Shown here: piece after piece, positions 46,138-64,000 of the stretch
Layout of the letters: every line of letters begins with the position of its first letter
Numbering within the stretch: position 1 is the stretch's first letter
Source: Sedimentisphaerales bacterium
GTDB lineage: Bacteria; Planctomycetota; Phycisphaerae; Sedimentisphaerales; SM23-30
Direction: 5' to 3'
Length of the DNA stretch: 64,000 nucleotides
NCBI GenBank assembly: GCA_963663965.2
Contig: CAXXFK010000032.1
Coordinates: 32,001-96,000 of the forward strand
Notes under the pieces: generated by a model
Database searches by the model: none
The model's input: the letters and a program-made list of their open reading frames with translations, nothing else
Told to the model about the DNA's origin: nothing
Program-made: the position numbers and the translations under genes

Positions 46138-46266
46138 TTTTCAAAGCTGCCTCTCGGGGTCGCAAGAATTAAATTTCTTTGCGACCCTTTTTTTTACCCC
46201 TCAATATCCCGAATTATCCGATTTGCCATTGATTGCCGGGTCACATCATCTATAATGCCATAGACT

Positions 46267-47043
46267 ATGGCTAATAAATTACTGTTTTTAGGCACCGGAA
46301 CCAGTATGGGCATCCCAATGATCGGATGCGATTGCGCGGTATGCCGCAGCGATGACCCCAGAGACAAGCGGAACCGCTGCTGTGCCTTACTTAAGTTAAA
46401 TGGTAAACAGATCTTAATCGACACCCCCCCGGAACTCAGACTGGCCTGTATCGCCAACCATGTACGCTGGATCGATACCTGCTTGATTACTCACACCCAT
46501 GCCGACCATCTGTTCGGCCTGGACGACCTGAGACGCTTCAATCAAATCCAGCGCTCGACCATCGATCTGTGGGCCTCGCCCTTCCACATGGAAAAAATCG
46601 ATCGGACCTTCCGCTACGCCCGCCATACCGAACGTCCCGAATCGGTCGACTTGCCTCAACTCATTTTCCGTGAAATCCAACCGGACACACAGGAAGCCGA
46701 CTTATACGGCAACTCCCTCCGGGCATTTTCCCTGCCGCACGGTCATCATATATCCATGGGCTTTCGCATCAACGATTTCGCTTACTGCACCGATATGCAC
46801 GAAATGCCTCCATCGGTAATCGACGCCTTAGCCGGCGTAAAAACCATCGTGCTGGGCGCTTTACGGGATGAACCCCATCCCGCCCATCTCACCATCAACC
46901 AGGCGCTGGAAATCGTCGGACAGTTGGGAGTCGAACAAACCTGGCTGGTCCACATGAGCCACCATATCAGTCATGCCCGTGACAGCAAACGACTGCCGCC
47001 CGGCGTACAGTTCGCCTGGGACGGCCTCGAAATAGACATATAA
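46267..47043 (+). CDS. MBL-fold metallo-hydrolase (PhnP/YycJ-like)
   Basis: FLGTGTS.GIP.IGC.C.VC.S.D, THTHADH, AYCTD, HMSH. Confidence 0.88.
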   Translation: MANKLLFLGTGTSMGIPMIGCDCAVCRSDDPRDKRNRCCALLKLNGKQILIDTPPELRLACIANHVRWIDTCLITHTHADHLFGLDDLRRFNQIQRSTIDLWASPFHMEKIDRTFRYARHTERPESVDLPQLIFREIQPDTQEADLYGNSLRAFSLPHGHHISMGFRINDFAYCTDMHEMPPSVIDALAGVKTIVLGALRDEPHPAHLTINQALEIVGQLGVEQTWLVHMSHHISHARDSKRLPPGVQFAWDGLEIDI

Positions 47044-47063
47044 CTATTGGAAAGGGTAAAAGG

Positions 47064-47639
47064 ATGCGTTCATTAACAGTGCTGGTTCTATTCATGGTTA
47101 CTGTACCCGCCTGGGGCGGCCTGCTCATCGTCGGCCAGGATTACCAACTCCCCATTCCCGCACAACTTCACGACCCCGGCCAGATGCCCCCCGCCCGATT
47201 ATGGGTGGACTCTCATGTATCCATAATAGATCTGGATATCAAATTGAACATTGAACATACCGAAGTGGGCGATCTGGTCATCCGCTTAACCAGCCCATCG
47301 GGCACAACCGCCACCCTGAAACAAAGCTGGCTGCCGCTCTGGCGCCAGAACCGACCCAACATGATCGACACCATACTTGATGATGAAGCACCCCTCCCCC
47401 TCAAATCAGGCCAGGCCCCCTATACCGGTCGATTCCGGCCGGAAGTAAATCCCCTCTCACTCTTCGATGGCGAAGATGCCGGCGGCTGGTGGACACTGAA
47501 TATCGATGACCCCATTTACTACGACTATGGCCAACTCAACCGCTGGGAACTGCATATCACCCATGCCCCCGAGCCCTCCATGCTGACACTGGCAATCACC
47601 GGCCTCCTGTACTGCCAGAAAAGGCGGACCCATCCATGA
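47064..47639 (+). CDS. Proprotein-convertase P-domain protein with PEP-CTERM sorting signal
   Basis: Signal peptide; I.H..VGDL.I.L.SPSGT, LS.FDGE...G.WTL.I.D.....G.L..W.L; APEPS-hydrophobic-KRR tail. Confidence 0.85.
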   Translation: MRSLTVLVLFMVTVPAWGGLLIVGQDYQLPIPAQLHDPGQMPPARLWVDSHVSIIDLDIKLNIEHTEVGDLVIRLTSPSGTTATLKQSWLPLWRQNRPNMIDTILDDEAPLPLKSGQAPYTGRFRPEVNPLSLFDGEDAGGWWTLNIDDPIYYDYGQLNRWELHITHAPEPSMLTLAITGLLYCQKRRTHP

Positions 47640-48778
47640 CTACGCCTCCCAACCGGCCGGACCATAAACCCCGGATCATGCAGTTGATCACCGACCTGGA
47701 ACTGGGCGGCGCGCCCATGATGGTTCAGAATTTATCCCTGGGCCTGCACCAGAGAGGCTACGAAGTAGCAGTAACATGCCTGGCCAAGGCCGGTCCCGTT
47801 GCCGACACCCTGCGCCACCACGGCATCATCGCCGCCGGATTTGATGCCTGGAGTGCGATAGACATATCGGTGTTATGGCGTCTGGCGCAATTTATCCGAA
47901 AATACCGCCCGGATATCCTCCACTGCCATCTGATGCACGCCAACGTAGTCGGCCGCCTTGTCGGCCGGCTATGCTACGTCCCCCGCATCATAGCAACCAT
48001 CCACACGGCCGAACGCAAAAAACACTGGCACCTCTGGCTCGAATCCCTGACCCAGCGTCTTTCCAACCGGATCATCTGCGTCTCCCCCTCCGTGCAACGC
48101 CACATGTCAACCTATATCGCTCAAAATCGGCTTAAAACCATCTGTAACGGAATTGACGTGGATAAATACCACGATGCCCAGCCATATAACCCCTGGGAAC
48201 TGGAATTGAACCCGGACCTCCCCATCCTGATCTTCACCGGCCGCCTCGATCCGGTCAAAAATATCGGTAAAATCATTCAGGCAATCAAACTCCTATCCGA
48301 ATCCGGCCACCAGGTCCAGCTGCTGATCGTCGGCGACGGCCCCATGAAATCCGAATTACTGGCCTCCACCCGGCTCCTCCAGCTCACCCGTCATATCCAC
48401 TTCCTGGGCGCCCGCCGCGATATCCCCCGACTCTTGAAGTCTGCCGACATCTTCATCATGGCCAGCCGCTGGGAAGGCATGAGCATATCCGCCCTGGAGG
48501 CCATGGCCGCCGAAACCCCCATCATCGCCTCCAACGTCCCCGGCCTGAATGACATGATCCGCGATCAGCAGAACGGCTTACTGTTCGACCCCGCCTCCCC
48601 CCAGCAGATCGCAACCAAAATCAAAACCCTGCTGGATAATAAACCCCAGGCCCGACAACTGGCCCAAAACGCCTCCCAGACCGTACGGCAACAATACTCC
48701 CTGACCGCCATGATCGACCACTACTGCACCCTCTACCACCAATTATCCCCCCACCCCCCACAACCATCCAGCCCATAA
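47636..48778 (+). CDS. Glycosyltransferase family 4
   Basis: GGA, PDILHCH, NGID, GRL..VKN, S.WEG......EAMAA. ATGA overlap with the upstream gene. Confidence 0.9.
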   Translation: MTTPPNRPDHKPRIMQLITDLELGGAPMMVQNLSLGLHQRGYEVAVTCLAKAGPVADTLRHHGIIAAGFDAWSAIDISVLWRLAQFIRKYRPDILHCHLMHANVVGRLVGRLCYVPRIIATIHTAERKKHWHLWLESLTQRLSNRIICVSPSVQRHMSTYIAQNRLKTICNGIDVDKYHDAQPYNPWELELNPDLPILIFTGRLDPVKNIGKIIQAIKLLSESGHQVQLLIVGDGPMKSELLASTRLLQLTRHIHFLGARRDIPRLLKSADIFIMASRWEGMSISALEAMAAETPIIASNVPGLNDMIRDQQNGLLFDPASPQQIATKIKTLLDNKPQARQLAQNASQTVRQQYSLTAMIDHYCTLYHQLSPHPPQPSSP

Positions 48779-50000: not shown

Positions 50001-51068
50001 TTATTCTGGCGCTTTAAAAGTAACCACCGTCAACTCGGCGGTTGTCCAGCTTTTATTGTCCAGTATCTCATGCAGCTCACCCGGCTTCAGCTCCGGAGCA
50101 TTGTTCTTTCGCTCCACAACCACTAACGCCTTGGCTCCCTTGTTGATGGACTTGAAATTGCCGGTGTAATTTCCCGAATTCACCCCGGTCAGCAGCAAAG
50201 GCCGTCGTGTCGCGATCGCGCGCACCAGGAACTCACCGTGCGGGGGCTTGATTGCAATTTGAAAATCATCCAGCGGATCGGGGATCATCATCTTCCCACC
50301 CGCCTTAAGCAGCGACTGGCCTTGATGCAGGCGATTAGGATATAGCTGTGTCATATCCCCCTCGGGATCGAGCGCGATCAGCGTAATATAACAATCGGCT
50401 GTCGCCGTCAGGTTAAATTCGATAAACTCGCCTTCGGCATACACCCGCTTGAATTCAGGCGTCTCCAGCGTCACCTTAAATGGCTGGGTTGGATTAACCG
50501 AATCCATCAGATCGCTGTTCTCCAGGATAACCGGACCGTCAGGCCGCTCGCCCGGTTGGCCCGGCCCCGGCCGCGCCAGTTTCATATTCTCGATCAATTC
50601 CCGCGTCTTCACCGGCCACTGCTCCAGCTGATCCACCGGCGTCCAGCCCCGCCGAACCACCTTGGCCCCCGCGCAATCCAGCAGCCGCATACTCAAATGA
50701 TGCTTCTCACCCACCTTGGCCAGACTGCCCTGCAGCAGATAACGCACCTCGATCGAACGGCCGAACCGGGCCGCCTGCTCCGCGTTCGAATTCAACGCAC
50801 CCGGCTTCAACTGCTGCTTATCCAGCGCCTGCGCCAACTCACGCTCCTGATACAGCGGATACCGGCTGGCATCCACCTGACTCTGTATATACCGGCACAA
50901 CTGCTCACTCATCGGGTTGATCGGCGGATCGATCGCCTTGGACCGCACCGTAAACACCTCAAACGGTATCACCGCCAGCTTCCCTCCCGCCGGCGTATTC
51001 GGATCGGCCAAACCCGCGGCCGCCAGACAGGCAACCAGAACGATAACTATATTATATTTCCGTTTCAT
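50001..51068 (-). CDS. Exported protein: CsgG/TolB_N-like domain plus DUF4384-like domain
   Basis: Signal peptide; LAVIPF...A.RFGR.IEVRYLLQGS....G....LSMRLLD; Y.EGE.I.F...A..DCYITLI.LD.EG....LYPN...IP......I.PP.G...V.AIAT..PL. Confidence 0.75.
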   Translation of the reverse strand: MKRKYNIVIVLVACLAAAGLADPNTPAGGKLAVIPFEVFTVRSKAIDPPINPMSEQLCRYIQSQVDASRYPLYQERELAQALDKQQLKPGALNSNAEQAARFGRSIEVRYLLQGSLAKVGEKHHLSMRLLDCAGAKVVRRGWTPVDQLEQWPVKTRELIENMKLARPGPGQPGERPDGPVILENSDLMDSVNPTQPFKVTLETPEFKRVYAEGEFIEFNLTATADCYITLIALDPEGDMTQLYPNRLHQGQSLLKAGGKMMIPDPLDDFQIAIKPPHGEFLVRAIATRRPLLLTGVNSGNYTGNFKSINKGAKALVVVERKNNAPELKPGELHEILDNKSWTTAELTVVTFKAPE

Positions 51069-51271
51069 TATCAGAACCTTCTATTGAAATTGTAATTGTT
51101 AAACACAACGTTCTCACGTCAAGAAATCACCAGCGTTTCTCTTCTTTGATATCACGCTTCCCCAAAGTACTATCCAATTTCCTTCAATCCCCCATCGCAT
51201 CAATAAACCCTAAAGGACGATAAACCACCTTAAGTGAGTCTGCCAAGCTCTAGCCAGCACAAGAGCCTGTA

Positions 51272-54200
51272 TCATAAAAAATGCATCAGAAGAACGCGAA
51301 ATCCGATAATCTCAGTACGAATAAAACGAGTATCACTTATACGTGCGGCTGAACGGCAATCAAATGGTGCACTAGTCCAGGATCCCCCACGCAGAATTCC
51401 CTTTGTTCCTCTGGATAATTTGGAACCGCTGCCAGAAGAATTATCGTACCAATTCCAACTCCATTCATATACATTTCCATGCATATCATATAAGTTCCAA
51501 CGATTGGGTTGAAAAGAGCCTTGCTTGCTGGTATAAATAAAGCCGTCCCGGCTTGAACTGGTTGGCGATTTGGGAAATTTATTTTTAAAACTAATATCCG
51601 CCATATTACCATAATACCCATGGTTATCCGGGTTATCACCCCAGAAATACAATGTATCCGTCCCCGACCGACAGGCATATTCCCATTGCGCTTCCGTTGG
51701 CAGGGTATAGAGACGGCCTTCTTTATTGCTTAACCATTCACAAAATGCTATGGCATCCTCCCAGGCAATGCAAACCACTGGGTGATCTGTACCCTGTTGA
51801 TAACCTGGCTGTTTCCAGTTAATGTTACCCCCCTTTTTTTCTTGAATAGTCACGTAGTGACTTGCAATAACAAATTGTTGAAATTGCTCAATATTCACTT
51901 CATATTGGCCAAGCCAGTATCCTGCATCAATCCTTTCAGTATGCTGCGGACGATCGTCGGTTATAATATAATCTTCTTCAACATTAAATTTTCTAGCTAT
52001 TTCACTATGCGATAATCTGCTGCCTAATTTAAATTCACCCGATGGTATCCATACAAGTTTCATTCCAATACTATTAGTCATTATATCGCCTGGTTCTGGT
52101 TCAAGATAACGTTCCAGCTTTGCTTTGAGTTGATTGGCTTCAGGATAAGCAGCATTGATCTCTAAAAGTTTATTGAGCATTTCTAAGCCTTTAGAGGCCG
52201 ATGTAATATCATCACAAGCCTGTGCCAAACGAAATAATTCCGATGCGTATACTTCGCGTGCGTGAGCAATCCGGTCAACTTCGTCCAGACTGCCTAGAAT
52301 CTCCTTCATCAGGGATAAAACACTCTTATAATCCGCCTTTTCGAAAGCCGCCGCCGCCTCTGCCATCAACCGCTCCAGCGCTTTCCAGTTTTCCCCGCCA
52401 TACCGCTGCATCAGGTCGGTATCATAACCGCTCATCCGGCGCTTCATCTGCTCAGCCGCCGCCTCTGCCAGTTCTTTCAACTGCACCTGCTCACGACCGG
52501 CTGCCTGTGCGCTCAACTGACCGGCCGCTTCGCTGATGTCATTAAACTGCTGACAAACTGAAGGCAGGTCCGCATCCGCCCGAACAATCTCTTTATAGTC
52601 CTGACGGAGTCTATCTAACTCCTCCGAACAAAACTCCTGGACCTTCGCATCATTTTGAGCCGCCGCCAGAACCGCCTGAGCATTCTCCTGCGCCTCGGTC
52701 AGCCGCTGCCGCCAGGCCGCCTGGCTCTCCTGCACGGCCAGTTCATATAAATCCGTAACGTCATTCATCACCCCCGCCGCTTCCAGTCGCCGGTCGGCGG
52801 ATAAGGCCCCCAGTGAGGCTTCTTTCTCGGCCGCGGTTTGACTGCGGTGCTGCGAATCGGCGATCTCAGCCGTTTGCCAGTGTTGCGCCCGGACTTTGGC
52901 CTGAGTCATTTTCTCACGGGCCGCATCATAGATGACCAATTCTTCCAATACCCGCCCGGTCTCCGCCTGTGCCCCGGAATAACCCTGGGCCGCCTGCTGA
53001 TAACTCCAGACTGCCCGGGCGTAATCACCTGACCGGTCATATTCCAATCCCCCATTATAACAGCTGTCAGCCTGGGCCATGGTCGCTTTGGCATGCAGCC
53101 GGGCCTCCTGGGCCTCTGCAACTTTTCGTGCATCCTGGGCACCCAGCTTGGACTGACCGGCATCCAACGCGCCAAAAGGATTTTCTATCTCTTTACCCAA
53201 CTCATACGCAGACAAATACGCCGGCCAATCCAGACAATCAGCCTGTTGCAGATAAACCTGCTTAAGAAAATCCACCTCCTCTAAATCCGCCAGATTCGGA
53301 TATGCTTCCCGCAGCTGTTCCATGGGTTGTTTCACGGATACGACTGGAGTGACGGGATCCGTATTGTGCGTGATCTCATTCTGCCCTCGATCAGGCATTG
53401 ATCTCGTATCCTCCCGATTCTGCCACCAGTAAATCCCTCCCACCAGCAGCAGAACCGCTACCAGCCCACCCGCCAGCATCTTGACAAGCCCACCACGTCC
53501 CGGCTTGGCCCCTGGCCTTTCCTCTCGTTTCAAAACTTGCGTTTTTTGCCCATCCAGGGTCTCATACCCACCCCCGCCGGCGGTCAGTTCTTCCACCAGT
53601 TCTCCCGCCGTACCCTGCCGCAACTCCGGCAATTTGGCCAGCGCCATGAGTATGGCATTATTGGCGGCCTTCGAGACGGCATCGATCGGATCGGCCTTTC
53701 GGCTCTTGATCTGCTCGCGGATATCCCCGGTATAAAAGGGAGGATGACCGGCCAGGCATTCGTACAACACGCACCCCAGCGAATAGATATCCATCCGCGC
53801 GTCCGGCTTATCCCCCATCAGCTGCTGCGGACTCATATACGGCAGCGTCCCCGAGGTCTCATTGCCCGTCAACCGGGTATAACTGTCCTTCATCTCCCGC
53901 GCGATCCCGAAATCCAGCACCTTCACCCGCCCATTCGGCCCCACCATGATATTGGTCGGCTTGATATCCCGGTGAAAGATCCCCTGACCATGCGCGTAAT
54001 CCAGCGCCGCCGCCACCTGCCTGGCCATCGGCAGCGCCTCCTCCAGCGTCATCACCTGCCCCTGTTCCAGCCGGTCGGCGATCAGATGATCCAGCGTCCG
54101 CCCCGCCACGTATTCCATCGTAATGAATTTCTCATGCCCCTCGCCATGCAGATCGTATATCCGCACAATATTATCATGGGCCAGCTTATGCGCCAGCGCC

Positions 54201-54397
54201 ACCTCCCGCCGCAGGTTATGCAGCGTTGTGCGATTCCCCGCCAGCGACGGCGGAATCATCTTAACCGCCACCCGCTCCCCAATCTCTACATCCTCCGCCA
54301 GATACACCAGCCCCATGCCGCCCTGACCCAGCTTTTCAATAACCCGGTAGCGACCGGCTAACAACTCACTCGGATAATCATCACTGGGCCTGGACAT
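51272..54397 (-). CDS. Transmembrane Ser/Thr protein kinase with helical stalk and C-terminal FGE-sulfatase (SUMF1/CLec-fold) domain (Pkn1-like architecture)
   Basis: GQGGMGLVY, AVK, HRDIKPTN, DFG, GTLPYMSP; TM LAGGLVAVLLLVGGIYWW; NSIGMKLVWIP.G.F.LGS, LPTEAQWEYACR, LYDMHGNVYEW, RGGSW...GFRV. Confidence 0.92.
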   Translation of the reverse strand: MSRPSDDYPSELLAGRYRVIEKLGQGGMGLVYLAEDVEIGERVAVKMIPPSLAGNRTTLHNLRREVALAHKLAHDNIVRIYDLHGEGHEKFITMEYVAGRTLDHLIADRLEQGQVMTLEEALPMARQVAAALDYAHGQGIFHRDIKPTNIMVGPNGRVKVLDFGIAREMKDSYTRLTGNETSGTLPYMSPQQLMGDKPDARMDIYSLGCVLYECLAGHPPFYTGDIREQIKSRKADPIDAVSKAANNAILMALAKLPELRQGTAGELVEELTAGGGGYETLDGQKTQVLKREERPGAKPGRGGLVKMLAGGLVAVLLLVGGIYWWQNREDTRSMPDRGQNEITHNTDPVTPVVSVKQPMEQLREAYPNLADLEEVDFLKQVYLQQADCLDWPAYLSAYELGKEIENPFGALDAGQSKLGAQDARKVAEAQEARLHAKATMAQADSCYNGGLEYDRSGDYARAVWSYQQAAQGYSGAQAETGRVLEELVIYDAAREKMTQAKVRAQHWQTAEIADSQHRSQTAAEKEASLGALSADRRLEAAGVMNDVTDLYELAVQESQAAWRQRLTEAQENAQAVLAAAQNDAKVQEFCSEELDRLRQDYKEIVRADADLPSVCQQFNDISEAAGQLSAQAAGREQVQLKELAEAAAEQMKRRMSGYDTDLMQRYGGENWKALERLMAEAAAAFEKADYKSVLSLMKEILGSLDEVDRIAHAREVYASELFRLAQACDDITSASKGLEMLNKLLEINAAYPEANQLKAKLERYLEPEPGDIMTNSIGMKLVWIPSGEFKLGSRLSHSEIARKFNVEEDYIITDDRPQHTERIDAGYWLGQYEVNIEQFQQFVIASHYVTIQEKKGGNINWKQPGYQQGTDHPVVCIAWEDAIAFCEWLSNKEGRLYTLPTEAQWEYACRSGTDTLYFWGDNPDNHGYYGNMADISFKNKFPKSPTSSSRDGFIYTSKQGSFQPNRWNLYDMHGNVYEWSWNWYDNSSGSGSKLSRGTKGILRGGSWTSAPFDCRSAARISDTRFIRTEIIGFRVLLMHFL

Positions 54398-54444
54398 ACA
54401 ACCTCTTCTATTGACTGGCGTAATCTATACTATAATCTTTCAAC

Positions 54445-54741
54445 TCTTTGTTTTCTTAGCAAGCTTTTTGTTCTGACATTTTATAAGTATATTAATTTGA
54501 ATTCCTTATAGACTGCTTACAATTGAAAGTGCCCGCTGGGCCGTGATATAAGTTCTACATGAGTAAAAATTATCTTGCGAGCGATCGAGAATTATCATAC
54601 CCATTGGGTATACATCAAAATCGTTACCTTGAACTTTTTATCCTGTTGATCCTGTAATCCTGTCAAAATGGCTGTTAATCTTCGTGGCTTCGTGACTTTG
54701 TGTGAACTATTTCTTCTTTGGTTGCGGCTTGACTGCCCTGT
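54445..54741. repeat. Two-block dispersed repeat, copy B
   Basis: Matches 24073-24267, with about 100 bp more sequence between the two blocks. Confidence 0.9.
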
Positions 54742-54745
54742 ATCA

Positions 54746-56590
54746 TCAATACTGCTTCGTCTGGCATTCCGGACAGAACCGGCTATCCGCCGGAATCGAT
54801 TTCTTACACTTGACACAGGTCTTTTCCGCACTGGGTTGCTGCGGATTGATCACTACCGGCGCGCCGATCCCGCCGGCCCCGGCCACCACGGTCTGCCCTG
54901 CCGGCATCGGCGCCTGCGCCCGGGTGGCCGCTGTCCAGCCCATCTGACCCATCGCCGTATTCATCATCCGCTCCAGCCGGTCGGCATGTTCGCGGCTGGT
55001 CTGCTGCTGCTGAGCCATGAACTGCTGCATCTGCTGGGTCTGCTGACTGTTGATCAATGCCTCCGCCTTGTATTTTTCCACCAGCACCTGCGCCACATGC
55101 GGGCTGTCTGCCGCCGTCAACGCGATTAACTGGTCCGGACTTAGTTTTTCTTTGATCCGCAGTTCTTCCAGCCGGGCAATCCGGTCGGCCGCCGGACCAT
55201 CCAATATCGCCATCAGCGCCTGGGCCGACGCCTCCGAGAACTGCTTCAGCTTCAATCCCTCATTTTCCACCCGCGCCTTTTCCTCCGCGATGGTCATCTG
55301 CTCATCTTTATGATCCAGATCGATCAACCGCTCCACCACACCCAGGTGATCATGCCTCTCCTTCATATCCTGCTGATGATCATCCACCCGGATGGTTCGG
55401 TCTGCGTTGGCATCTTCAACCTTCTGGGTACGGTCAAATTCCTTCTGTTTCCCTTTTAACCCCAACTGCGAATCCAGTTCTTTATGGGCCTCCTCCCGGC
55501 GCGCGTCATTGGCAATCCCTTCGATCTCGATCCGGTTCAGTAGAATTGCCATCTCCCGGTTTTGCTCAAATTGCCGTTTGAGCCGGTCCATCTCATCATC
55601 CCGGATCAGGTCTTTCAGCCCCAGTTCATGTTCCGTCTGACGCAGAAAATCTTCCAGATCGCTGGCTGTCTTGATCTGGCTCATCTTCTCGGCGCTTTCC
55701 TCTTTCCGCAACCGCTGGGTCAGCTTCAACCGGTCAATATCGATATCCGCGTTGCGGGTCTCCACGTAAAGTTCCGACTCCCGTTCACGGATCGGATCAT
55801 AGGTCGGACAGAAAAAGTCCACAAATCGTAACTGGACCATTTCCAGTCCGATCCGCTCCAGGATCGGTTCAACCGCCAGTTGCATCTGCCGTTCCACCTC
55901 CGGCCGCAAGGCCGTATTGCCATACAGATCTTCCACCGAATGCCCGCCGACGTAAGTCTGCAACGCGCCGCGGATCTCATCCGCCAGCGATCCGGCCAGG
56001 TACCCCACCGATAAAATATTCCGCCCTTTAAATGCGTTGGTATAAAACCGCTCCGGTTCGCGCAAACACACCACCGCCTTGAATGAAGCGTCCACATCCA
56101 CCTGCTCTCGGCTGTGCAGTTTCAACGCGTCCAGATGCAGCGTCACATCCCCCGCGTCAATCAACACCACCGAAGTGGGCGTTGTCTGGTTAAAATGGTT
56201 CACCCGTTTCAAAAATCCATTCACATCGTATCGTCCCGGATCGACCGTCCCGCAAAAGCGCCCCTGCTGAAAAATCAGCGCGCTGGTGCCATGCTCGACA
56301 ATCAGCCCCTTGTTCAGAAAGCCCTTGACATCGCATTCCTGAATCCGGATGGCATAATCCTCTTCTTCACGCACCCACCGGTTATTGAACAACCGTTCTT
56401 TCCCCAACTCGCTCTGGTCAGCCCCGCATTTCCAGCAGAACTTCGCGGTCGACCCGATGGTCGACCCGCACCGCCCGCAATTGGTATCAGCATGTGTGGC
56501 CGGAGTTCCGCAATGGCGGCAAAAACTAGCCGTCCGTAAAATCGGCCGTCGGCATTCCGGATTCGTACATCGATTGGAAAAAAGTCCCAT
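54746..56590 (-). CDS. SPFH/Band-7 domain protein with N-terminal double zinc ribbon, coiled coil and C-terminal zinc ribbon
   Basis: MGLFS; C..C/FC..CG x2; LIVEHG..ALIFQQGR..G.V.PGRY; L..IGLEMV.L; long E/K/Q/R helical region; CVKC...FCPEC. Confidence 0.82.
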   Translation of the reverse strand: MGLFSNRCTNPECRRPILRTASFCRHCGTPATHADTNCGRCGSTIGSTAKFCWKCGADQSELGKERLFNNRWVREEEDYAIRIQECDVKGFLNKGLIVEHGTSALIFQQGRFCGTVDPGRYDVNGFLKRVNHFNQTTPTSVVLIDAGDVTLHLDALKLHSREQVDVDASFKAVVCLREPERFYTNAFKGRNILSVGYLAGSLADEIRGALQTYVGGHSVEDLYGNTALRPEVERQMQLAVEPILERIGLEMVQLRFVDFFCPTYDPIRERESELYVETRNADIDIDRLKLTQRLRKEESAEKMSQIKTASDLEDFLRQTEHELGLKDLIRDDEMDRLKRQFEQNREMAILLNRIEIEGIANDARREEAHKELDSQLGLKGKQKEFDRTQKVEDANADRTIRVDDHQQDMKERHDHLGVVERLIDLDHKDEQMTIAEEKARVENEGLKLKQFSEASAQALMAILDGPAADRIARLEELRIKEKLSPDQLIALTAADSPHVAQVLVEKYKAEALINSQQTQQMQQFMAQQQQTSREHADRLERMMNTAMGQMGWTAATRAQAPMPAGQTVVAGAGGIGAPVVINPQQPSAEKTCVKCKKSIPADSRFCPECQTKQY

Positions 56591-56661
56591 GATTAACTCC
56601 TGAGTTCAGTTTTATTTTTCGAATGGTTCATAGCGGCACAATCACGTCGCCACAGCCAACA

Positions 56662-57810
56662 TTAACGCGGCGTCATAACCGATTTCATCATGCCCTTCAA
56701 TATCAACAACACAACGATACCGCCGATGACACCGCCAATAATCCAGACCCGTTTATCGTTCTGGGCGTTATCAACAATATCAAATGTGTCCAGCGGCCCC
56801 GATACCGTCAACAGATCAGGCGCCGGACTCCACAGGATCTCGCCGCTGTTCGCGTCCATCAGATAGAATGACAGCCGGACAAAAACCTGGTATTTATTCT
56901 TATCCACTCGTGCTTCATGAACCGTCCCATACAAAATCGCGTCACAACCCTTGTCTTTAGCAAAGGCGCACATCTTGGTACTGTCCATTGTATCCGCATT
57001 CAACTGAGTCCATTTAATCTCATTCAAGAACGTTTGCCACTCGCCACTGGAAGTTGGAATCGGCTTATAAGCGCTGCCGGCCAGTTGCCCTTGAACCGTA
57101 TCAGTGATCGCCCGGCCGGGATCGTTACCCCAGAATGGCAGCACGGCGAAATTTTTGATACTTAACGACTTGCTTTCCAGATCAGCCAACGCCTGTTGCG
57201 CGGCTTTCTGAATCGCTTTCACTAACGCCGGATTCAACACCACCGGTTGATCCGGGGTAATATCACCCGTCAAAGGTTTCGTTTTGACTATCTCCTGACT
57301 GCTCCACATCACCTCACCGGTCTCGACATCACCCAGGAACAGAATCAAACGGGTAATCGCCATTTGCTTATTGCTATCGGCCCCGCTTTCACGAACGGTA
57401 CCATAAATCACACCCTGGCACCCTTCAATCCGGCCAAACGATTTGATGGTATCAGGATTCATAATATCGGCCCGCTTGTCGCGCCATTCGATTTCACTCA
57501 GCAGACTGTTCCAGTCCTCTGTATTACGCTCCATCACTCGAAAAGGCCCACCGGCCAGCGCCGCCTTCACTGATTGGGCAATATAATCCTTATTGCCTTC
57601 TCCCCATAACGGCAGTATGGCGATATTCATCGTCCCGTCAACCGTTAACCCCTTCAACTGGCTGGCTGCTTCATTCGCCGCCTCTTTGATAGTCAAATCC
57701 AGCGCCCGGTCCAGATCGGCCTGATCATAATTCTGGGCGCCAACCGGCAGACAATAGAACGCAGCTAACATTAAAACAACCGCTCGAAATATGGCAGATG
57801 ACTTTGTCAT
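56662..57810 (-). CDS. Exported protein with two tandem CsgG/LpoB/TolB_N-like domains and a C-terminal TM anchor
   Basis: Internal duplication IAILPLWG...GVIYGTV...DVETGEVMWS vs FAVLPFWG...AILYGTV...DANSGEILWS; signal peptide; C-terminal VWIIGGVIGGIVVLLILK. Confidence 0.72.
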   Translation of the reverse strand: MTKSSAIFRAVVLMLAAFYCLPVGAQNYDQADLDRALDLTIKEAANEAASQLKGLTVDGTMNIAILPLWGEGNKDYIAQSVKAALAGGPFRVMERNTEDWNSLLSEIEWRDKRADIMNPDTIKSFGRIEGCQGVIYGTVRESGADSNKQMAITRLILFLGDVETGEVMWSSQEIVKTKPLTGDITPDQPVVLNPALVKAIQKAAQQALADLESKSLSIKNFAVLPFWGNDPGRAITDTVQGQLAGSAYKPIPTSSGEWQTFLNEIKWTQLNADTMDSTKMCAFAKDKGCDAILYGTVHEARVDKNKYQVFVRLSFYLMDANSGEILWSPAPDLLTVSGPLDTFDIVDNAQNDKRVWIIGGVIGGIVVLLILKGMMKSVMTPR

Positions 57811-57823
57811 GATTAACTCCTTC

Positions 57824-58777
57824 TTATTGAGGTATCGCCGTCTTATCGGTTTCCAGACCGGTCTTGTCCAAACGGGTCACTTTTAAATGAATGGTATCCA
57901 ATTGTTCCAGGTAAGCCGCAAGGTTATCTTTGATACCGGCGTCCATTCTTACCCAGAACAACGCCCGGCCGGTTTGCGAATCCCAACTGATCCTCGAAAC
58001 CGATTTGACTCCCGGCAACTTCTGTAATTCCGTCTCGATATAATCAACATACTTAACTCGTTTCAGGCCATCCACCTGAATCCTGCGCACCAATACCCCA
58101 CTTCCACTTTTTCGTAGAATCTCATAACTGAGTTCACCCGCCAATTCCTCCCCACACTTCTGGACCGTATTTTTCACAGCCTGGGACTGGTTGGTCGTAC
58201 GCTTACCGTATACATAAACATCTTTGGAAGCCAATACCTCGTTTCCGACAATCTGCAACACTTTGCCATCCGCTTCCGCTTCATAAAGATAATAATTGCC
58301 AAACTTATCCTTCTGGTCAACTCTCGTTAATCGGGCCAGAACCATTAAGTCAGCGTCATATTCATCCGCCAGACGTTCTACCGTTTCCGGCCGGGGGTTG
58401 TATCCCGGACATTTGTAAAAATCGAGAACCCGGTAATTCAAATTGACAAAATGACGCTTGATCTCATCCTTGAGATCATCCGCACCCGACTCGCCATCAC
58501 AACAGATCAACAGACGCAATAAGTCCAGCTTGGCCTGGTATACCAGATTACTTTCCTGATCACTAGATATAATATCGCCTGAATTATTATCTGGCCGCAA
58601 GATCGGATCGTCATTCTTTTTCGTTTCAACCGGTGTCGGTAAAATCGGAGGTTCCGTTTCCGGTTGGGTGACGACTCGAGGGTCCTGATAATCCGGTGTC
58701 CGTGGCTTACTACTGCCGCACCCACCGATAAATAATACCGTCAGTACAATACCCAAAGACAACACACACTTTTTCAT
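57824..58777 (-). CDS. Lipoprotein of unknown function (alpha/beta, possibly FlgT/CsgG-like)
   Basis: AAGGAG SD, lipobox IGGC, Pro-rich tether, LA..YDADLMVLA...A.GKVLQ..G.EVLA. Confidence 0.7.
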   Translation of the reverse strand: MKKCVLSLGIVLTVLFIGGCGSSKPRTPDYQDPRVVTQPETEPPILPTPVETKKNDDPILRPDNNSGDIISSDQESNLVYQAKLDLLRLLICCDGESGADDLKDEIKRHFVNLNYRVLDFYKCPGYNPRPETVERLADEYDADLMVLARLTRVDQKDKFGNYYLYEAEADGKVLQIVGNEVLASKDVYVYGKRTTNQSQAVKNTVQKCGEELAGELSYEILRKSGSGVLVRRIQVDGLKRVKYVDYIETELQKLPGVKSVSRISWDSQTGRALFWVRMDAGIKDNLAAYLEQLDTIHLKVTRLDKTGLETDKTAIPQ

Positions 58778-58802
58778 CACAGGCTCCTTCTATTTAATAT
58801 AA

Positions 58803-59192
58803 TTATTTGCGTTTACTACCCTTACCGCCAGCCTCTTCAGTCTTATCTTGATGACTCTGGCAACGTTTGATCTTATTTACCCCAAAACATTCAGCACACA
58901 ATGCCGCCTGACACACCTCGCACCGCCCCTTGATTCCCAGTTCACTGACGATTTTCTCGCCACACCCCCCACATCGAATATCCATCATAGCGATATGATC
59001 CTGTCCCCTTACCTCACGATAAACATGCTGCTTTTGCTGTTCAATATAGGCCGCCAGATCGTCCGACGATACTCGATAGACGCGTCCTATCCGCGCGGCA
59101 GGGATCTCTCCACTCCGTACCAGCTTGTAAGCTGATTTATATTCAAGATTTAAGTACTCGGCAACCTCTTCGATTGTCATCAATTTGTCCAT
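58803..59192 (-). CDS. Excisionase-like (HTH_17) DNA-binding protein fused to a Cys7-His zinc finger
   Basis: LMTIEEVAEYL......YKLVRSGEIPAARIGRVYRV...DL; CGGC-x12-CEVC-x4-CAEC-x8-C..H. Confidence 0.85.
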   Translation of the reverse strand: MDKLMTIEEVAEYLNLEYKSAYKLVRSGEIPAARIGRVYRVSSDDLAAYIEQQKQHVYREVRGQDHIAMMDIRCGGCGEKIVSELGIKGRCEVCQAALCAECFGVNKIKRCQSHQDKTEEAGGKGSKRK

Positions 59193-59289
59193 GTAGTCTT
59201 CCTTATATACCGGTTAACTCCGGACTCCCCTGGTCCGATATCCATAAGTGACCAGGCTATTACATTTCTCTTCATTTACTGACATTGGA

Positions 59290-59318
59290 ATTATAACCTA
59301 CAATCGGCTATTTGGCAA
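59290..59318 (-). promoter_or_regulatory. Sigma70 promoter for the HTH-lipoprotein-CsgG-like-SPFH operon
   Basis: TTGCCA-N17-TATAAT on the minus strand. Confidence 0.72.
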
Positions 59319-59485
59319 CCTTTTATTTCATTTATTTTGATTTTACTTACTTTTATTTCCCTAAAATTACACATAACCAAGCCTGTATCGTTTTCCTCAT
59401 CATCATTTCTACTGGATAAAATTAAATTAAATACATCTTATTTGGATTACATCTTCATAACCGGCATTGATTCTTTCCTGAGTTT

Positions 59486-62035
59486 TTATTGATTTTGATC
59501 GTCGATCAAAATGACCCTGAATCCGGTCTCATCATTTTTCTCACCCGGTTTCTCCCGGCTGCGCTCTGCCGCTCGGCAATTCAGCGCTTTAGTTTTCCAG
59601 GAACCGCCCCGCACCACTCGATAATCCCCCTGCGATACGGCCGGAGGATCGACCACCAGTTCCTGTGTATCATATTTGTCCCGATACCCATCCAGACACC
59701 ACTCCCAGACACTGCCATGCATATCACAGACGCCCCACGCGTTAGGCTTCTTTCGCCCGCCTTTATCCAGGTACGGCCTGCTGTAATCCGCGAACTGACT
59801 CAACTGAACATCGTCATCCCCGCAGCTATACCGGGTCGAACTGCCGGCCCGGCACACATATTCCCATTGCGCTTCTGTCGGCAAACTATAAGATTTTCCT
59901 TCCATTTCGCTCAATTTCTGACAAAACTGCACCGCCTCCTTCCAACTGACATTATTGGCCGGATTTTTATCGCCCCGAAAATTGCTGTCGTTATACCCCA
60001 TCACCCGGCGAAACTGCTCCTGCGTCACTTCACATACCCCAATATAAAACCCCTTGCTCAGCCTGACTTTATGTTGAGGCCCCTCATCGGCATCTCGCCC
60101 CGGCTCATTATTCGGCGAACCCATCAGATAGTCTCCTCTGGGTATCCAGATCAATTCCATTCCAATCGAATTAACCGCCGTTTCTCCCGCCTGAGGCGAA
60201 GCGCTGTCAACAATCAACGCCTTTAAAGCCAACCCCTGGGCATGAGTGCCATCCAGCGCCAGCAATGTATCCAATGTGCTCAGCGCTTCGGAAACCTGAC
60301 CCGAATTAAAACTCCCCTGCGCCTGTTTCCACAGCGCCTCCTTATATTGCTCCTGCGAATACCGTTCTACCTCCGGAATAAGCGTCATCGCCTTGCCGTA
60401 ATTCTCCAACGCCTTCTGATAATCCTGACCTGAGTTACTGGCGTTATTTAAAAACCCTTGCAACGCCTTCCATTTATCCCCGCCATAAGTCTCCCATAGT
60501 TTCAAATCATATCCCTTCAACGCCTCTTCACAACTGTGCCTGGCATCCACCACCATTTCTTTTAATTGAGCCTGTTTTACGGCTATTCGCTCTTTAGCCA
60601 GACCCGGCAACTTCAAATATAACTTTTCAGCCTTGCTATATAGCTCTGCGGCTTTGACATAATCGCCTCCCATATTTTTAGCCTGCGCCATCAATTGGCC
60701 CGCCTCGGTCAATTCCCCAGCACATTCCGCCTTCACCTGATCCGACAGCGCCAGTAACATTGCCCTCTCAGCCTTACCCCGATTCAATTCCATAACATTC
60801 TGCAAGCGCACCATCTCAGGATCAGGCCCCGGCACGGGCTCCGGGAGTATTGGTTGAGTATCAGGAATATTATTTTCAGAACGATCCGGGCTCGCACTCG
60901 TAATGGGTTCTGTTGACTCTTGTTGACCGTCGTTTGCTCCCGGCTTCACATAATTCTCCGATGGAGAAATAACCAAGTTCTCCGATGAGGGTGTATGAAC
61001 TTCCTGATGAACGACTTCCTGATTACCTTGCTCTCCGGCAATAATACCATTCTGTTTTAATACCCAGAACGCCCCGGCAATCCCAACCAGCGCCAGAACA
61101 ATCAAAACAGCAGCCAACCGCCCCCCTTTACCTGCGTTAATACCACGTAATGCCTGCACTAACTCTTCTGAGTCATATCGCTCCTCCGGTTTATCGCGCA
61201 AACACTTCGCCACAATCTCATCCCAGCGCGGATTCAATCCGGCCACTTCCTTAGTCGGTGGATTCGCGATTCCGACCGGCCGGCGCCCCGTCAGCAACCG
61301 ATAGGCCATCACCCCAAATGAATAAATATCGCTGCGTTCATCCGCCGGCAAGCCATCATGCTGCTCCGGCGACATATAGTCATAAGTTCCCAGGATCCCC
61401 GACGATCCCGCGCTGGCTCCTCGTCCGCTGTCGATTGTCGGCTGCCCGTTCAAGGTATTCACCATCGTTGGCCGGCCATTCAGTGTTCGCTCCGGCCTCA
61501 ATGAATTGTGTATCTGAGACATAATAAAATCCGAGCCCACTGCCCGCGCCAGGCCAAAATCGGTCAGCTTCACCATCCCATCCCGCGTCAGCAGAATATT
61601 CGCCGGCTTGATATCCCGGTGTACCACGCCCCGTTTATGCGCATACGCCAGCGCTCCCGCGATCTGCACTAGCCACCGGTATGCCTGGTCCGGATCCAGC
61701 CGGCTGTGGCTCTTTTCTTTGATCATATCATGCAACGAACAGGACTCACCGGCCGGCCCCTCCACATAATCCATCACCAGGTAATAGATCCCTTCATGTT
61801 CGCCAATATGATGCACCCGGACAATATTCGGATGATCCAGTTCACTCATCACCCGTGCCTCATCGAAAAACCGATGCCGGAAATCCGGCCGCTTCGCCAG
61901 TTCGTCCGGCATGACTTTCAAGGCGTAGATCTTCTTATGATGGACATTCTCAGCCAGATAGACCTGCCCCATTCCTCCGGCGCCGATGGATTTCAATACC
62001 CGGTAATCACCAATACATTGTCCAATAAGTTCCAT
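59486..62035 (-). CDS. Second transmembrane Ser/Thr kinase with helical stalk and C-terminal FGE-sulfatase (SUMF1/CLec-fold) domain
   Basis: GAGGMGQVY, ALK, HRDIKPAN, DFG, GTYDYMSPE; TM LAAVLIVLALVGIAGAFWVL; NSIGMELIWIP, EGPQH.V, LPTEAQWEY.CRAG, DMHG.VWEW, RGGSW...GFRV. Confidence 0.92.
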   Translation of the reverse strand: MELIGQCIGDYRVLKSIGAGGMGQVYLAENVHHKKIYALKVMPDELAKRPDFRHRFFDEARVMSELDHPNIVRVHHIGEHEGIYYLVMDYVEGPAGESCSLHDMIKEKSHSRLDPDQAYRWLVQIAGALAYAHKRGVVHRDIKPANILLTRDGMVKLTDFGLARAVGSDFIMSQIHNSLRPERTLNGRPTMVNTLNGQPTIDSGRGASAGSSGILGTYDYMSPEQHDGLPADERSDIYSFGVMAYRLLTGRRPVGIANPPTKEVAGLNPRWDEIVAKCLRDKPEERYDSEELVQALRGINAGKGGRLAAVLIVLALVGIAGAFWVLKQNGIIAGEQGNQEVVHQEVHTPSSENLVISPSENYVKPGANDGQQESTEPITSASPDRSENNIPDTQPILPEPVPGPDPEMVRLQNVMELNRGKAERAMLLALSDQVKAECAGELTEAGQLMAQAKNMGGDYVKAAELYSKAEKLYLKLPGLAKERIAVKQAQLKEMVVDARHSCEEALKGYDLKLWETYGGDKWKALQGFLNNASNSGQDYQKALENYGKAMTLIPEVERYSQEQYKEALWKQAQGSFNSGQVSEALSTLDTLLALDGTHAQGLALKALIVDSASPQAGETAVNSIGMELIWIPRGDYLMGSPNNEPGRDADEGPQHKVRLSKGFYIGVCEVTQEQFRRVMGYNDSNFRGDKNPANNVSWKEAVQFCQKLSEMEGKSYSLPTEAQWEYVCRAGSSTRYSCGDDDVQLSQFADYSRPYLDKGGRKKPNAWGVCDMHGSVWEWCLDGYRDKYDTQELVVDPPAVSQGDYRVVRGGSWKTKALNCRAAERSREKPGEKNDETGFRVILIDDQNQ

Positions 62036-62145
62036 TATATACCTTTACTATTGAATTTTCCCGTTTGGCCGGGATATAAATACTTGACGAGTATATGTCA
62101 ACTTTCGAGCGATCAAGATGTTTCATACCCATCGGGTACCACCTG

Positions 62146-62982
62146 CTATTGGGTTTGATTAGCTTTCTGGTCTTTCTTGGGCTCCATATACATCTGATAG
62201 GCCAGGTTATAAACCATCTCCCTGTCCCCCACCCGTATCCGGTCTCCCGCCGCCAGCGGCATCAATTCAGCCGGATTCAACTTATATCCGTTCACCTCTA
62301 CACTCCCTTCACGACTCAGGGCTTCAAGATAGAAACAGCCGCGCGCGGTTACCAGCGCGGCATGAACCGGTAGAATACCATCCTGCTCAATCCGTAAAGC
62401 ACACCCGGCCTCACTGCCAATCAAGATCCGCCGATAGACGATCAGATACGATTCAGTCCCTGCCGGATCGTCTTCACCCAGAGTCGTCTTTCGTTCCAGG
62501 GCCAGACTCGAAACACCCGCCCGTCCGGCCGCCTGCCAGAGAAGATCACCGCCTGCTTCCAGTGCCTGCTCATAATCCTGCCATAAGACCGCATCACTAC
62601 AACTTGGATATAATCGCAGTGACATCTCAAATAAATTCGCCAAAATCATCTGGTTGCTTTCACTTCTTAAGATATTTCCTTCTCGTCCTGTCAGTCTGCC
62701 ATTAATTTCCAGACCGTTTTTGGCCTCGCCCGATTCGATCACCCGGGGTCCCTTATCCGTCAATTCAATCAGGCAATGCTGGCGTCCAATCTTCCCGGAT
62801 CGCCGATCGTTTTCTCCGCCTTGATCTGAGGGAAGACAGCGTATGATCATGTCACAGTCCCGATTTCGCCCCAGCGTCACGGTTTCAGCATTATATAGAA
62901 ATATCCGATTCAAGCCACAGGTGCCCGACATGGTCAGAGTCGCCTTCTTCTCATCCTTCTGCCATTGTAACTGATGTAACAC
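62146..62982 (-). CDS. Tandem FHA-like domain protein, possibly the C-terminal part of the 63003..63854 gene
   Basis: VTLGR...CD......IGRQH..I.......KNG..ING and ILIGS...C..........HA.L......YL.......VNG.......L..GDRIRVG. Confidence 0.72.
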   Translation of the reverse strand: MLHQLQWQKDEKKATLTMSGTCGLNRIFLYNAETVTLGRNRDCDMIIRCLPSDQGGENDRRSGKIGRQHCLIELTDKGPRVIESGEAKNGLEINGRLTGREGNILRSESNQMILANLFEMSLRLYPSCSDAVLWQDYEQALEAGGDLLWQAAGRAGVSSLALERKTTLGEDDPAGTESYLIVYRRILIGSEAGCALRIEQDGILPVHAALVTARGCFYLEALSREGSVEVNGYKLNPAELMPLAAGDRIRVGDREMVYNLAYQMYMEPKKDQKANQTQ

Positions 62983-63002
62983 CAGCCCGCGCCCCTTCTG
63001 AA

Positions 63003-63854
63003 CTACCGCCGCCGCGCCGGTCCATCCACCCAGACCGGATCAAATTGCAGCTTCAATAACTCAAAACTGGGACCCAGTCGCCTGTATTCACGTAAAAGCT
63101 CATCAAAATTCCGTACCTGGCCACGATCAACCAGCACCTGGATATTATTCTTGATCAGATTACTGTGGATATCCCCGCCACTGGCATTGCCGATATGCAC
63201 CATCTTGTCGATATCCATATTGATCGTATCGAGTTGCTGGTCTTTCTCGAATACCATGATCTGACCATCCGCCCAGAATGCCCTGGTCTGACCGTCTTTC
63301 ATCGCGATCACCCGGAACTCCACCAGCAGAAAACCCGAATCATCCGGCCGGACATGCAAAAGACCGGTTCCCGCTTCACAAGGCCGCAGACTGAAATTCT
63401 TGCACGCCACTCTCTCAAACAGCGGTCCCCCGACTTCCACTCGCACCCGTTCAAAAGGATCATTGGATAGATTCTCCACTTTGAATTCGATTACCCCCGC
63501 CTTCCCTTCCACGTACAACTGATTATAATTGATATACAGCGCCAACCCATCCGAATGAGACATGCCCATTCGAGCCAGGCATCCATCTCCGGCAGAATGA
63601 ACCTCAACAGACTTGCCATCGGCTATGGCCGGGTTTGTTGCCCTTGCCAGGCCATTTTCTTTATCATCATGATATTCAACCACCGGCGGTTGCCCTGACT
63701 CGGACAACGCCTCGCACCTCATCGCTTCGCAATCCGCCGGCGCAGACGTCGATCCTTTCGCTTCGACATTCCGCATCTTGAATCCGCAGAATTGACAAAA
63801 GTTATCTTCGGGATCAACCGGTTTTCCACATTGGGTACACTGATTCATAATCAT
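63003..63854 (-). CDS. Zinc-ribbon protein with Ig-like domain
   Basis: CTQCG......NFCQFCG at the N-terminus; beta-rich IEFKVEN......RVRVEV segment; AGGA SD. Confidence 0.72.
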   Translation of the reverse strand: MIMNQCTQCGKPVDPEDNFCQFCGFKMRNVEAKGSTSAPADCEAMRCEALSESGQPPVVEYHDDKENGLARATNPAIADGKSVEVHSAGDGCLARMGMSHSDGLALYINYNQLYVEGKAGVIEFKVENLSNDPFERVRVEVGGPLFERVACKNFSLRPCEAGTGLLHVRPDDSGFLLVEFRVIAMKDGQTRAFWADGQIMVFEKDQQLDTINMDIDKMVHIGNASGGDIHSNLIKNNIQVLVDRGQVRNFDELLREYRRLGPSFELLKLQFDPVWVDGPARRR

Positions 63855-64000
63855 TTTCCTTATATATCCTGTTTGGCCTCACTCACGATTCCATCAATCC
63901 AGAAAGATACTTCTGGATTTAGGTAATCTATAAAAGAACAGCTATCCTAAATCTCGCCATCACAATCGCTCAGCGCTTTAAGGCTTTGTTTCAGATGATC

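Follow-up and report, generated by a model that had tools for sequence, protein, structure and literature searches.

Archaeal loci for ESCRT (endosomal sorting complexes that are required for transport) are described as carrying membrane kinases, FHA proteins, proteins that join an SPFH domain to a coiled coil and a zinc ribbon, and zinc ribbon-Ig proteins (PMC11188069, PMC10936438). A 2024 survey places ESCRT homologues in archaea and not in bacteria (PMC10936438), and the 2024 survey also suggests that kinase-linked archaeal ESCRTs pick their cargo via phosphorylation. A 2025 review describes a Vps4-like ATPase as apparently absent in bacteria (PMC7619361). In Bacillus subtilis, SamI (YdjI), which is recruited by membrane partners, itself recruits PspA (PMC13713150). 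Here we describe a gene cluster that lies partly in a 64,000-nucleotide stretch of DNA (the window) from a Sedimentisphaerales bacterium, covering positions 32001-96000 of contig C32 of the study genome (G000:C32:32001-96000; contig CAXXFK010000032.1 of GenBank assembly GCA_963663965.2). With moderate confidence, we read the window as holding the kinase, adaptor, scaffold and exported half of an ESCRT-III/Vps4 cluster, which would sense a signal at the envelope and recruit ESCRT-III to a site on the inner membrane.

The cluster is about 26 kb long and runs on the minus strand throughout, with mostly short gaps, from contig position 107801 to 82001. Its GC content (0.50-0.52) is that of its flanks. 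The source genome carries a bacterial 16S gene, and the named homologues and loci of the cluster belong to Planctomycetota, several of them to Sedimentisphaerales; on this basis the host is taken to belong to the Phycisphaerae. A preliminary description of the window had reported nine consecutive minus-strand open reading frames (ORFs) and suspected that the cluster continued past the right edge. All nine ORFs are present where it placed them, and the suspicion was borne out: the cluster continues for 11.8 kb past the window end, with seven further same-strand genes and a Y1 transposase (identified from ORFs and Pfam). In contig coordinates these are:

95947-97626 (G000:C32:95947-97626; 3' end in the window at 63947-64000), minus strand: 559-aa helical lipoprotein
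97644-100631, minus strand: kinase 3, transmembrane segment, FGE domain
100591-101190, minus strand: Snf7/CHMP-type ESCRT-III protein, 199 aa
101243-102406, minus strand: Vps4-type ATPase
102604-103050, minus strand: Y1 transposase
104096-106321, minus strand: caspase-FGE fusion
106352-107029, minus strand: second helical, ESCRT-III-like protein, 225 aa
107040-107801, minus strand: arCOG09748-like winged-helix protein, 253 aa, first gene of the cluster

By three independent homologies, this part of the cluster encodes relatives of archaeal-type ESCRT-III, Vps4 and winged-helix proteins. For the 199-aa protein, a profile of 100 homologues was used (95 picked by length from 150 listed, the query and four others). 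Against the PDB it matched CHMP2A (E 1e-7), CHMP3 (1e-6) and CHMP1B (7e-4), and also Snf7 and CdvB, the top match being a designed repeat protein; neither PspA nor Vipp1 was found among its 28 PDB matches. The Pfam family Snf7 was matched by 34 of the 100 profile members, and PspA_IM30 was absent among the 25 families listed. In a Foldseek search with a model of the protein, ranks 1 to 10 were occupied by ESCRT-III proteins and Vipp1 appeared first at rank 11, none of these matches reaching E 0.001. Judged by these matches, the protein is of the Snf7/CHMP type of ESCRT-III and not of the PspA/Vipp1 type. PspA_IM30 had no match among the locus proteins, and PF04012 had none in the genome at E 0.001 (9 of 14 controls matched). 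No match was obtained between the Snf7 profile and the three ESCRT-III proteins encoded at the Halomicrobium locus, which places the nearest archaeal kin of this gene elsewhere.

The ATPase falls in a clade with the published Halomicrobium mukohataei Vps4 (HMUK_RS15775) and the ATPase of a metagenome locus (L060), with a support of 100 in the Shimodaira-Hasegawa-like approximate likelihood ratio test (SH-aLRT). This was obtained with a quick tree of 52 AAA domains (a 67-row tree minus 20 long or redundant rows plus 5), in which the labels katanin, spastin, PAN and CDC48 were assigned from motifs, L065 and L129 alone being checked with Pfam. The earlier 67-row tree gave the same clade without the published Vps4 sequence. 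The two archaeal members stand next to a single group (95) of the other 16, which are bacterial where a name or handle exists; neither donor nor direction of transfer is fixed by the tree. The profile scored 335 bits against HMUK_RS15775, and 166 bits for the other locus-associated type of ATPase. The spacing in the second region of homology is short, as in the Vps4 references. The CdvC model is matched from residue 11, far under its cut-off and near the CDC48 and PAN scores; both this model and the published Vps4 align from the N-terminus, a region three-helical in appearance. A full-length PDB search was filled by two-domain p97/Cdc48 entries. A predicted complex of ATPase residues 1-76 with the Snf7 tail (155-199) scored 0.04 against a mark of 0.32 and was used neither way. 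The ORF lacks the conserved Vps4 start, which sits immediately upstream in a different frame, an apparent one-base shift at the 5' end.

The profile of the 253-aa protein matched the published arCOG09748 member HMUK_RS15885 (E 5e-19) and did not match a second, short listed member. Its model shows a C-terminal winged helix with many tied matches, including ESCRT-II (3cuq_A; Z 7.8, root-mean-square deviation 3.1, 66 aligned residues). The 225-aa protein, basic in its N-terminal and acidic in its C-terminal half, resembles a second ESCRT-III protein and is a candidate paralogue; it was aligned with the Snf7 family by hhalign (33.5%, E 4e-4) and had no ESCRT-III match in the PDB. Its family is separate from a 202-aa group.

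A second, MIT-like type of AAA ATPase with CDC48-like spacing often adjoins Snf7 and is absent from the window's locus (examples are L007:875-2029, L008:183-935, L141:15907-17031 and L040-L057); in many Phycisphaerae it occurs alone, or alongside the Vps4 type, and together with the L083 ATPase it makes up a separate clade. The archaeal locus L060 (L060:8458-13088, with an archaeal flagellin gene nearby) includes a helical protein of the 225-aa type, the Vps4-type ATPase, a diadenylate cyclase whose helical N-terminus resembles that of the ATPase, and a winged-helix-type protein. The metagenome contig L083 (L083:9851-19661) encodes Snf7 (Pfam E 3e-7), a 658-aa winged-helix-type protein and a second helical protein, as well as the second type of ATPase and a GAP1-N2-like gene.

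The part of the cluster within the window is as follows, in window coordinates:

50001-51068, minus strand: exported protein with an alpha/beta N-domain and DUF4384 (Pfam E 1.4e-19), last gene of the cluster
51272-54397, minus strand: receptor Ser/Thr kinase 2, with kinase domain, transmembrane segment (304-322), helical stalk and FGE-sulfatase domain (C-type lectin fold), from Pfam
54746-56590, minus strand: soluble SPFH scaffold, with double zinc ribbon (DZR), Band_7 (E 7.7e-12), coiled coil and zinc ribbon
56662-57810, minus strand: periplasmic tandem LpoB-like protein with C-terminal membrane anchor
57824-58780, minus strand: 318-aa lipoprotein (lipobox Cys21) without a Pfam family
58803-59192, minus strand: excisionase-like HTH_17 protein (Pfam E 1e-17, TIGR01764) with a six-Cys zinc-binding tail, candidate autoregulator
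59290-59345, minus strand: sigma-70-like promoter inside the cluster; A-rich direct repeats lie upstream of its -35 box
59486-62035, minus strand: receptor Ser/Thr kinase 1, with kinase domain (long Thr-rich activation loop), transmembrane segment (307-325), TPR-like stalk and FGE-sulfatase domain, from Pfam
62146-63854, minus strand: adaptor with zinc ribbon, beta domain, FHA domain (Pfam) and degenerate FHA domain

Most of the domains first read from the letters are backed by Pfam: the zinc ribbon (63003-63854), Pkinase and FGE-sulfatase in both window kinases, HTH_17, the two kinds of zinc ribbon around Band_7, and DUF4384.

The window genes and the core occur together in other genomes. We have read five related loci (L006-L009 and L140/L141). 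All five carry the four core genes, and the HTH-zinc finger and SPFH genes stand beside the core in every one, which upholds the proposal that the module is linked and conserved. The lipoprotein and LpoB-like genes are present in four (L006 is without both), and the order HTH-lipoprotein-LpoB-SPFH is kept in 4/5. The zinc ribbon-beta-FHA gene is found in all four loci in which the contig reaches it, and at least one kinase in four of the five, L009 starting near a contig end. For the Snf7, ATPase, 225-aa, HTH and SPFH genes, identity to these relatives is 55-74%. Neither for the DUF4384 gene nor for the 559-aa lipoprotein is there an orthologue in the five loci. Among the 250 other genomes of the order, Snf7 was found in six, the window SPFH in four and the LpoB-like gene in three, and each SPFH or LpoB match lies on the same contig as Snf7, within about 9 kb. 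Since these genomes are kin, the co-occurrence is not an independent test.

Beyond the order, the Snf7 family was found in 57/251 genomes of the class and in 60/301 of the phylum Planctomycetota, nearly filling some families; no relatives were found in plasmids. We fetched 20 of 56 class loci. Their usual layout is a small membrane protein, a kinase, a zinc ribbon protein, a fusion of the winged-helix and 225-aa types, a further helical paralogue and Snf7; 13 of the 20 continue with the second kind of ATPase and then an SPFH-like gene (one checked, Band_7 E 0.0012), and a kinase is present in 18 of these 20 Phycisphaerae loci. A further 17 loci of the phylum were chosen for long contigs from 59 matches, with about 10 kb on each side. 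They include the winged-helix type (16), the Vps4-type ATPase (13), a different SPFH protein (11) and a kinase (8). A metagenome scan with the ATPase left 80 loci, mostly with generic AAA proteins, one being of the Vps4 type and two having Snf7 neighbours; these were reused as tree references.

The three kinases retain intact Hanks-type motifs (Gly-rich loop, catalytic Lys, HRD-x-KPxN and DFG), and a hydropathy scan places one transmembrane helix after the kinase domain in each kinase of the window. A 26-row tree puts kinases 2 and 3 in a nine-member clade made up solely of kinases of these loci; the partners of kinase 1 are two kinases of the related locus L007 (SH-aLRT 99 in both cases). The paired lectin-fold receptors named in the preliminary description are not what is conserved. 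An FGE ectodomain is found in 3 of 11 related kinases (two of the ten that were scanned for domains, and the eleventh by BLAST); the other ectodomains of the ten scanned are WD40, LamG, Sel1, SurA/PPIase or DUF4234, or nothing recognised, and TPR also occurs in kinases of related loci. The locus-specific kinase clades and the varied ectodomains together indicate that the kinase domains travel with the system while the sensors are exchanged. Kinase 1 has two copies of a short Thr motif (T-L-x-G-x-P/K-T) in its long activation loop; kinase 2 has one copy ahead of its transmembrane segment, and several related kinases have the motif close to the N-terminus. Its counts (3 of 7 genome-wide matches, 5 of 11 related full kinases and 0 of 18 Phycisphaerae kinases) serve as a lead only, the motif having been defined from these same kinases. 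It is a candidate phosphorylation or docking site.

This rapid swapping of ectodomains also speaks for another explanation, which we consider unlikely: that the whole island is a conflict system (anti-phage, anti-predator or cell-contact) in which diversifying ectodomains detect an invader, kinases and caspase-like peptidases fire, and ESCRT-III seals or cuts off the attacked membrane. Its distribution in the order is patchy (7/251, and 0/24 other genomes of the family), and several loci include caspase-FGE and caspase genes. FGS domains and caspases are typical conflict-system parts, the FGS domain always being C-terminal there (PMC7159879). Against this, Snf7 is near-universal in some planctomycete families (10/10 and 28/35), unlike most defence genes, and no nuclease or NADase effector was seen in the locus. 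A PADLOC screen of 16 proteins gave no support to the anti-phage role raised at the outset: its matches were to generic domains only, namely kinase (PD-T4-6, mad6), AAA (IetA) and HTH (mad1), and 11 proteins had no match. Signs of a diversity-generating retroelement were also lacking in a crude pattern scan (the FGE 3' ends had no near-identical copy elsewhere in the genome, and a simple reverse transcriptase motif had no match, no profile search for the enzyme being included). Downstream of the module in one relative (L142:3473-11019) are two further caspase-domain proteins.

The zinc ribbon-beta and FHA ORFs form a single gene in all four relatives with enough DNA. In one contig of the public run X1 there is one extra base at 63005, the stop codon (two gaps and no other differing letters); with a depth of 2.9 this contig is weak evidence alone. 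With the extra base, the frame arithmetic gives one gene of 569 aa. On the fusion in four relatives and this base, eight genes are likelier than nine, and the zinc ribbon-beta/FHA gene is probably split in the assembly at 63005. The same contig has another extra base at 62092, in the repeat-bearing gap 62036-62145. The 'Ig' domain assigned to the first of the two ORFs had no Pfam match at E 0.05. The tandem FHA assignment held in so far as Pfam recognises two FHA stretches (62146-62982, E 1e-14), of which the second is degenerate. The consensus of FHA domains that read phosphothreonine is Gly-Arg, Ser-x-x-His and Asn-Gly; in the first FHA domain Gly-Arg, His and Asn-Gly are present and the Ser is replaced.

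A split gene of this sort might also suggest that the study-genome copy is a decaying island without current function, which we regard as very improbable. The apparent one-base shift at the Vps4 5' end and a Y1 transposase with repeats inside the core could be read in the same way. The split itself is contradicted by the independent X1 contig; X1 contigs agree with the greater part of the window nearly to the letter and have long open frames; and the intact catalytic motifs of the kinases and the identity to relatives also speak against decay. The Y1 (IS200-like) transposase is flanked by repeated GC-rich palindromic elements and lies between the caspase-FGE and Vps4 genes (contig 102466-104095), in a spacer with 115 BLAST matches in the genome. 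It resembles a transposase associated with repetitive extragenic palindromic sequences. Fragments of dispersed repeats are present in the gaps 54398-54745 (174 genome matches) and 62036-62145 (59).

Among the remaining window proteins, hydropathy scans gave no transmembrane segment in the SPFH protein, and an N-terminal and a C-terminal hydrophobic segment in the LpoB-like protein. The latter had been called '2x CsgG-like'. Pfam instead gives LpoB in two stretches (E 5e-12) with no match to PF03783, and NCBIfam TIGR02722 is matched at E 7e-13, below the model cut-off; the homologue in genome G726 does match CsgG (E 1e-4). LpoB, CsgG and TolB_N have a common fold. The N-terminus of the DUF4384 protein, also described as CsgG-like, has no Pfam match at E 0.05, neither to CsgG nor to LpoB, and its score against the LpoB-repeat profile was within that of shuffled sequences (11 of 100 shuffles as high). 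With this small profile, CsgG/TolB_N homology was not shown for the lipoproteins or the DUF4384 N-domain. Single-sequence PDB searches with the Snf7, SPFH and DUF4384 proteins returned chance-level or unrelated matches only, for example UBA7 (E 6e-5) with the DUF4384 protein. Atlas look-alikes of the 318-aa lipoprotein are unnamed, with DUF6175 at 0.91, a lead only. In L142, a second zinc ribbon-beta protein is fused to TPR and DUF4384, and this fusion ties DUF4384 loosely to the system.

The Cys pattern of the HTH_17 protein is kept in the four relatives compared. The promoter upstream of its gene is the best sigma-70-like site of the region (11/12), and its -35 box and A-rich direct repeats align in 6/6 loci. 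We infer that the Xis-like HTH protein may bind the A-rich repeats at its own promoter; an A-rich UP element would look similar.

From the gene content, linkage and homologies set out above, we infer the following sequence of events. A site in the periplasm would be marked or spanned by the lipoprotein and the membrane-anchored LpoB-like protein. Receptor kinases whose ectodomains can be exchanged, in the window a helical stalk with the lectin-fold FGE domain, would bind either a ligand or an envelope that is damaged and would autophosphorylate, perhaps on the recurring Thr motif. The zinc ribbon-beta-FHA adaptor and a soluble SPFH oligomer may then assemble at the marked site, as might be compared with SamI/YdjI in Bacillus subtilis. 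The winged-helix protein and Snf7-type subunits would polymerise and seal or bud the membrane, with Vps4 recycling the subunits, and the Xis-like HTH protein would regulate the lipoprotein-LpoB-SPFH sub-operon via the repeats at the promoter of its own gene. As the preliminary description proposed, an outside-in pathway fits the kinases, the FHA adaptor, the SPFH scaffold and the exported proteins; that pathway is not complete by itself, these genes being the distal half of an ESCRT-III/Vps4 locus. Most likely, the purpose is inducible envelope repair or vesicle budding rather than cell division. Planctomycetes are known to lack FtsZ, which counts in favour of a cell-division machine for an FtsZ-independent planctomycete, a proposal that we nevertheless find scarcely credible. 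ESCRT is reported to divide some archaea (PMC11188069), but the locus was not found in 244 of the 250 other genomes of the order, many of them at 99% completeness.

A number of observations weigh against the window and the core being two halves of one system. Pfam MIT is not among the 25 ATPase matches listed, and the core of the study-genome copy is interrupted by the transposase. The first FHA domain has Gly-Lys rather than Gly-Arg in three of four relatives, and the second lacks the Arg and Ser. The internal promoter divides the cluster. The five related loci, being kin, may go back to a single insertion event. Profiles of FHA, the beta domain, HTH-zinc finger, lipoprotein, LpoB and FGE matched in none of the 17 distant phylum ESCRT loci, so that not all bacterial ESCRTs can depend on these parts. 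The window SPFH matched 5 of 300 other phylum genomes, four of them outside the Snf7 list. One of these genomes, G726, has in one run a lipoprotein, a kinase-TPR-FGE protein, a CsgG/LpoB-like protein, SPFH, two more kinases and a zinc ribbon-FHA protein; in G535 there are SPFH, an FHA protein and an exported protein of FlgO-like type, and G477 has parts of the module. Searches for Snf7, the Vps4 type and the winged-helix type gave no match in G726, G477, G535 and G680 (82, 98, 84 and 88% complete); these searches included no positive control, while the Snf7 profile matched 60 genomes of the phylum. From G726 and the other genomes in which the core was not found, we take the module to be a real unit that can probably exist without ESCRT.

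Several of these points speak for an independent receptor-kinase/FHA/SPFH signalling module, as first proposed for the window, which shares an island with ESCRT genes without controlling them. It would have its own promoter and its own regulator, a detectable core is missing beside it in G726, and its periplasmic and FHA parts are missing from the distant loci. We regard this explanation as rather unlikely. All SPFH and LpoB matches in the order are on Snf7 contigs; in L006, L008 and L141 the kinases stand next to or among the core genes; ESCRT loci of distant bacteria and of archaea again have SPFH and kinase neighbours; and the three genomes without the core are drafts. We favour, with moderate confidence, the joint ESCRT-III/Vps4 cluster, with the window as its sensing half. 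A bolder version of it, which we put forward only tentatively, is that a two-membrane bacterium runs a complete phosphorylation-gated ESCRT pathway. The FHA adaptor and an SPFH cage would replace ubiquitin and ESCRT-0/I, lectin-like receptors, open to exchange, and anchors in the periplasm would choose the site or cargo, and winged-helix protein, Snf7 and Vps4 would bud vesicles from the inner membrane into the periplasmic space. On this view the receptor-kinase module would be a portable front end, plugging into ESCRT or working without it.

To the left of the cluster, on the plus strand (45040-48778), is a converging operon unrelated to it, which encodes a 365-aa protein (no convincing Pfam match), a hydrolase of the metallo-beta-lactamase fold, an exported protein with a P-domain and a glycosyltransferase of family 4. 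At the other end (G000:C32:108321-117546), a divergent operon encodes a TPR lipoprotein, two coiled-coil proteins, ExbB and ExbD; past it lie, converging, a helical lipoprotein and a second caspase-FGE gene. A relative of that helical lipoprotein sits within the ESCRT block of L141.

One bacterial cluster unites Snf7, Vps4 and a winged-helix partner, and its pairing with a kinase arm is unlisted for bacteria in recent reviews. What the window contributes is probably the input side, with its receptor kinases, FHA adaptor, SPFH scaffold and proteins of the periplasm. With this locus, the idea that phosphorylation picks the cargo can be put to the test on proteins from bacteria; the locus also has a bearing on the shaping of the unusual planctomycete membranes. 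The statement of the preliminary description that no named system has this gene set agrees with the literature searched, in which we found none, nor any paper on a bacterial Snf7 and Vps4 locus or on this kinase module (subscription papers were mostly outside the scope of the search).

Compared with described systems, the locus stands as follows. With the Meth_adaptin archaeal ESCRT loci (PMC10936438/PMC11188069) it has in common an SPFH, coiled coil and zinc ribbon protein and a zinc ribbon and Ig-like protein beside Vps4/ESCRT-III; no ProX or GOLD domain was seen in the window's system. The pspA-samGHI (ydjGHI) operon of B. subtilis likewise has a soluble SPFH protein that is recruited by membrane partners and tied to a protein of the ESCRT-III superfamily (PMC13713150). 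In contrast, the filament protein here is of the Snf7/CHMP type and not PspA, Vps4 is present, and the partners are kinases and periplasmic proteins instead of SamG/SamH. Vps4-like ATPases that were transferred to bacteria, Planctomycetes among them, have been described in membrane-linked operons (Ravi et al. 2024, PMC11237479); there, snf7 is displaced by a TPR and 6TM gene, whereas here Snf7 is the next gene. The NTP-dependent conflict systems (Kaur et al. 2020, PMC7159879) also combine a C-terminal FGS (FGE-sulfatase) domain with varied N-terminal domains and include caspase-like peptidases; no MoxR, vWA, STAND or DO-GTPase core and no retroelement was found in the window's locus. The euryarchaeal ESCRT clades Main and Halo_FHA (Makarova et al. 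2024, PMC10936438/PMC11188069) have in common with it the Vps4 clade (HMUK_RS15775), the arCOG09748 winged-helix protein, a Snf7-type protein, several membrane Ser/Thr kinases and an FHA protein in the locus. Unlike them, the window's system has a bacterial, two-membrane host, no phosphatase was seen in it, and its FHA protein shows no match to the Halo_FHA protein; no Pfam family corresponding to arCOG08177 (Cas2-like and DUF3568) was present among the locus ORFs, no arCOG08177 profile search having been run. To the euryarchaeal set it adds lipoproteins, an LpoB-like anchor, FGE ectodomains, a caspase-FGE protein and an Xis-like regulator. The locus is a variant of the archaeal type of ESCRT whose receptor-kinase front end is semi-portable and suits a cell with two membranes.

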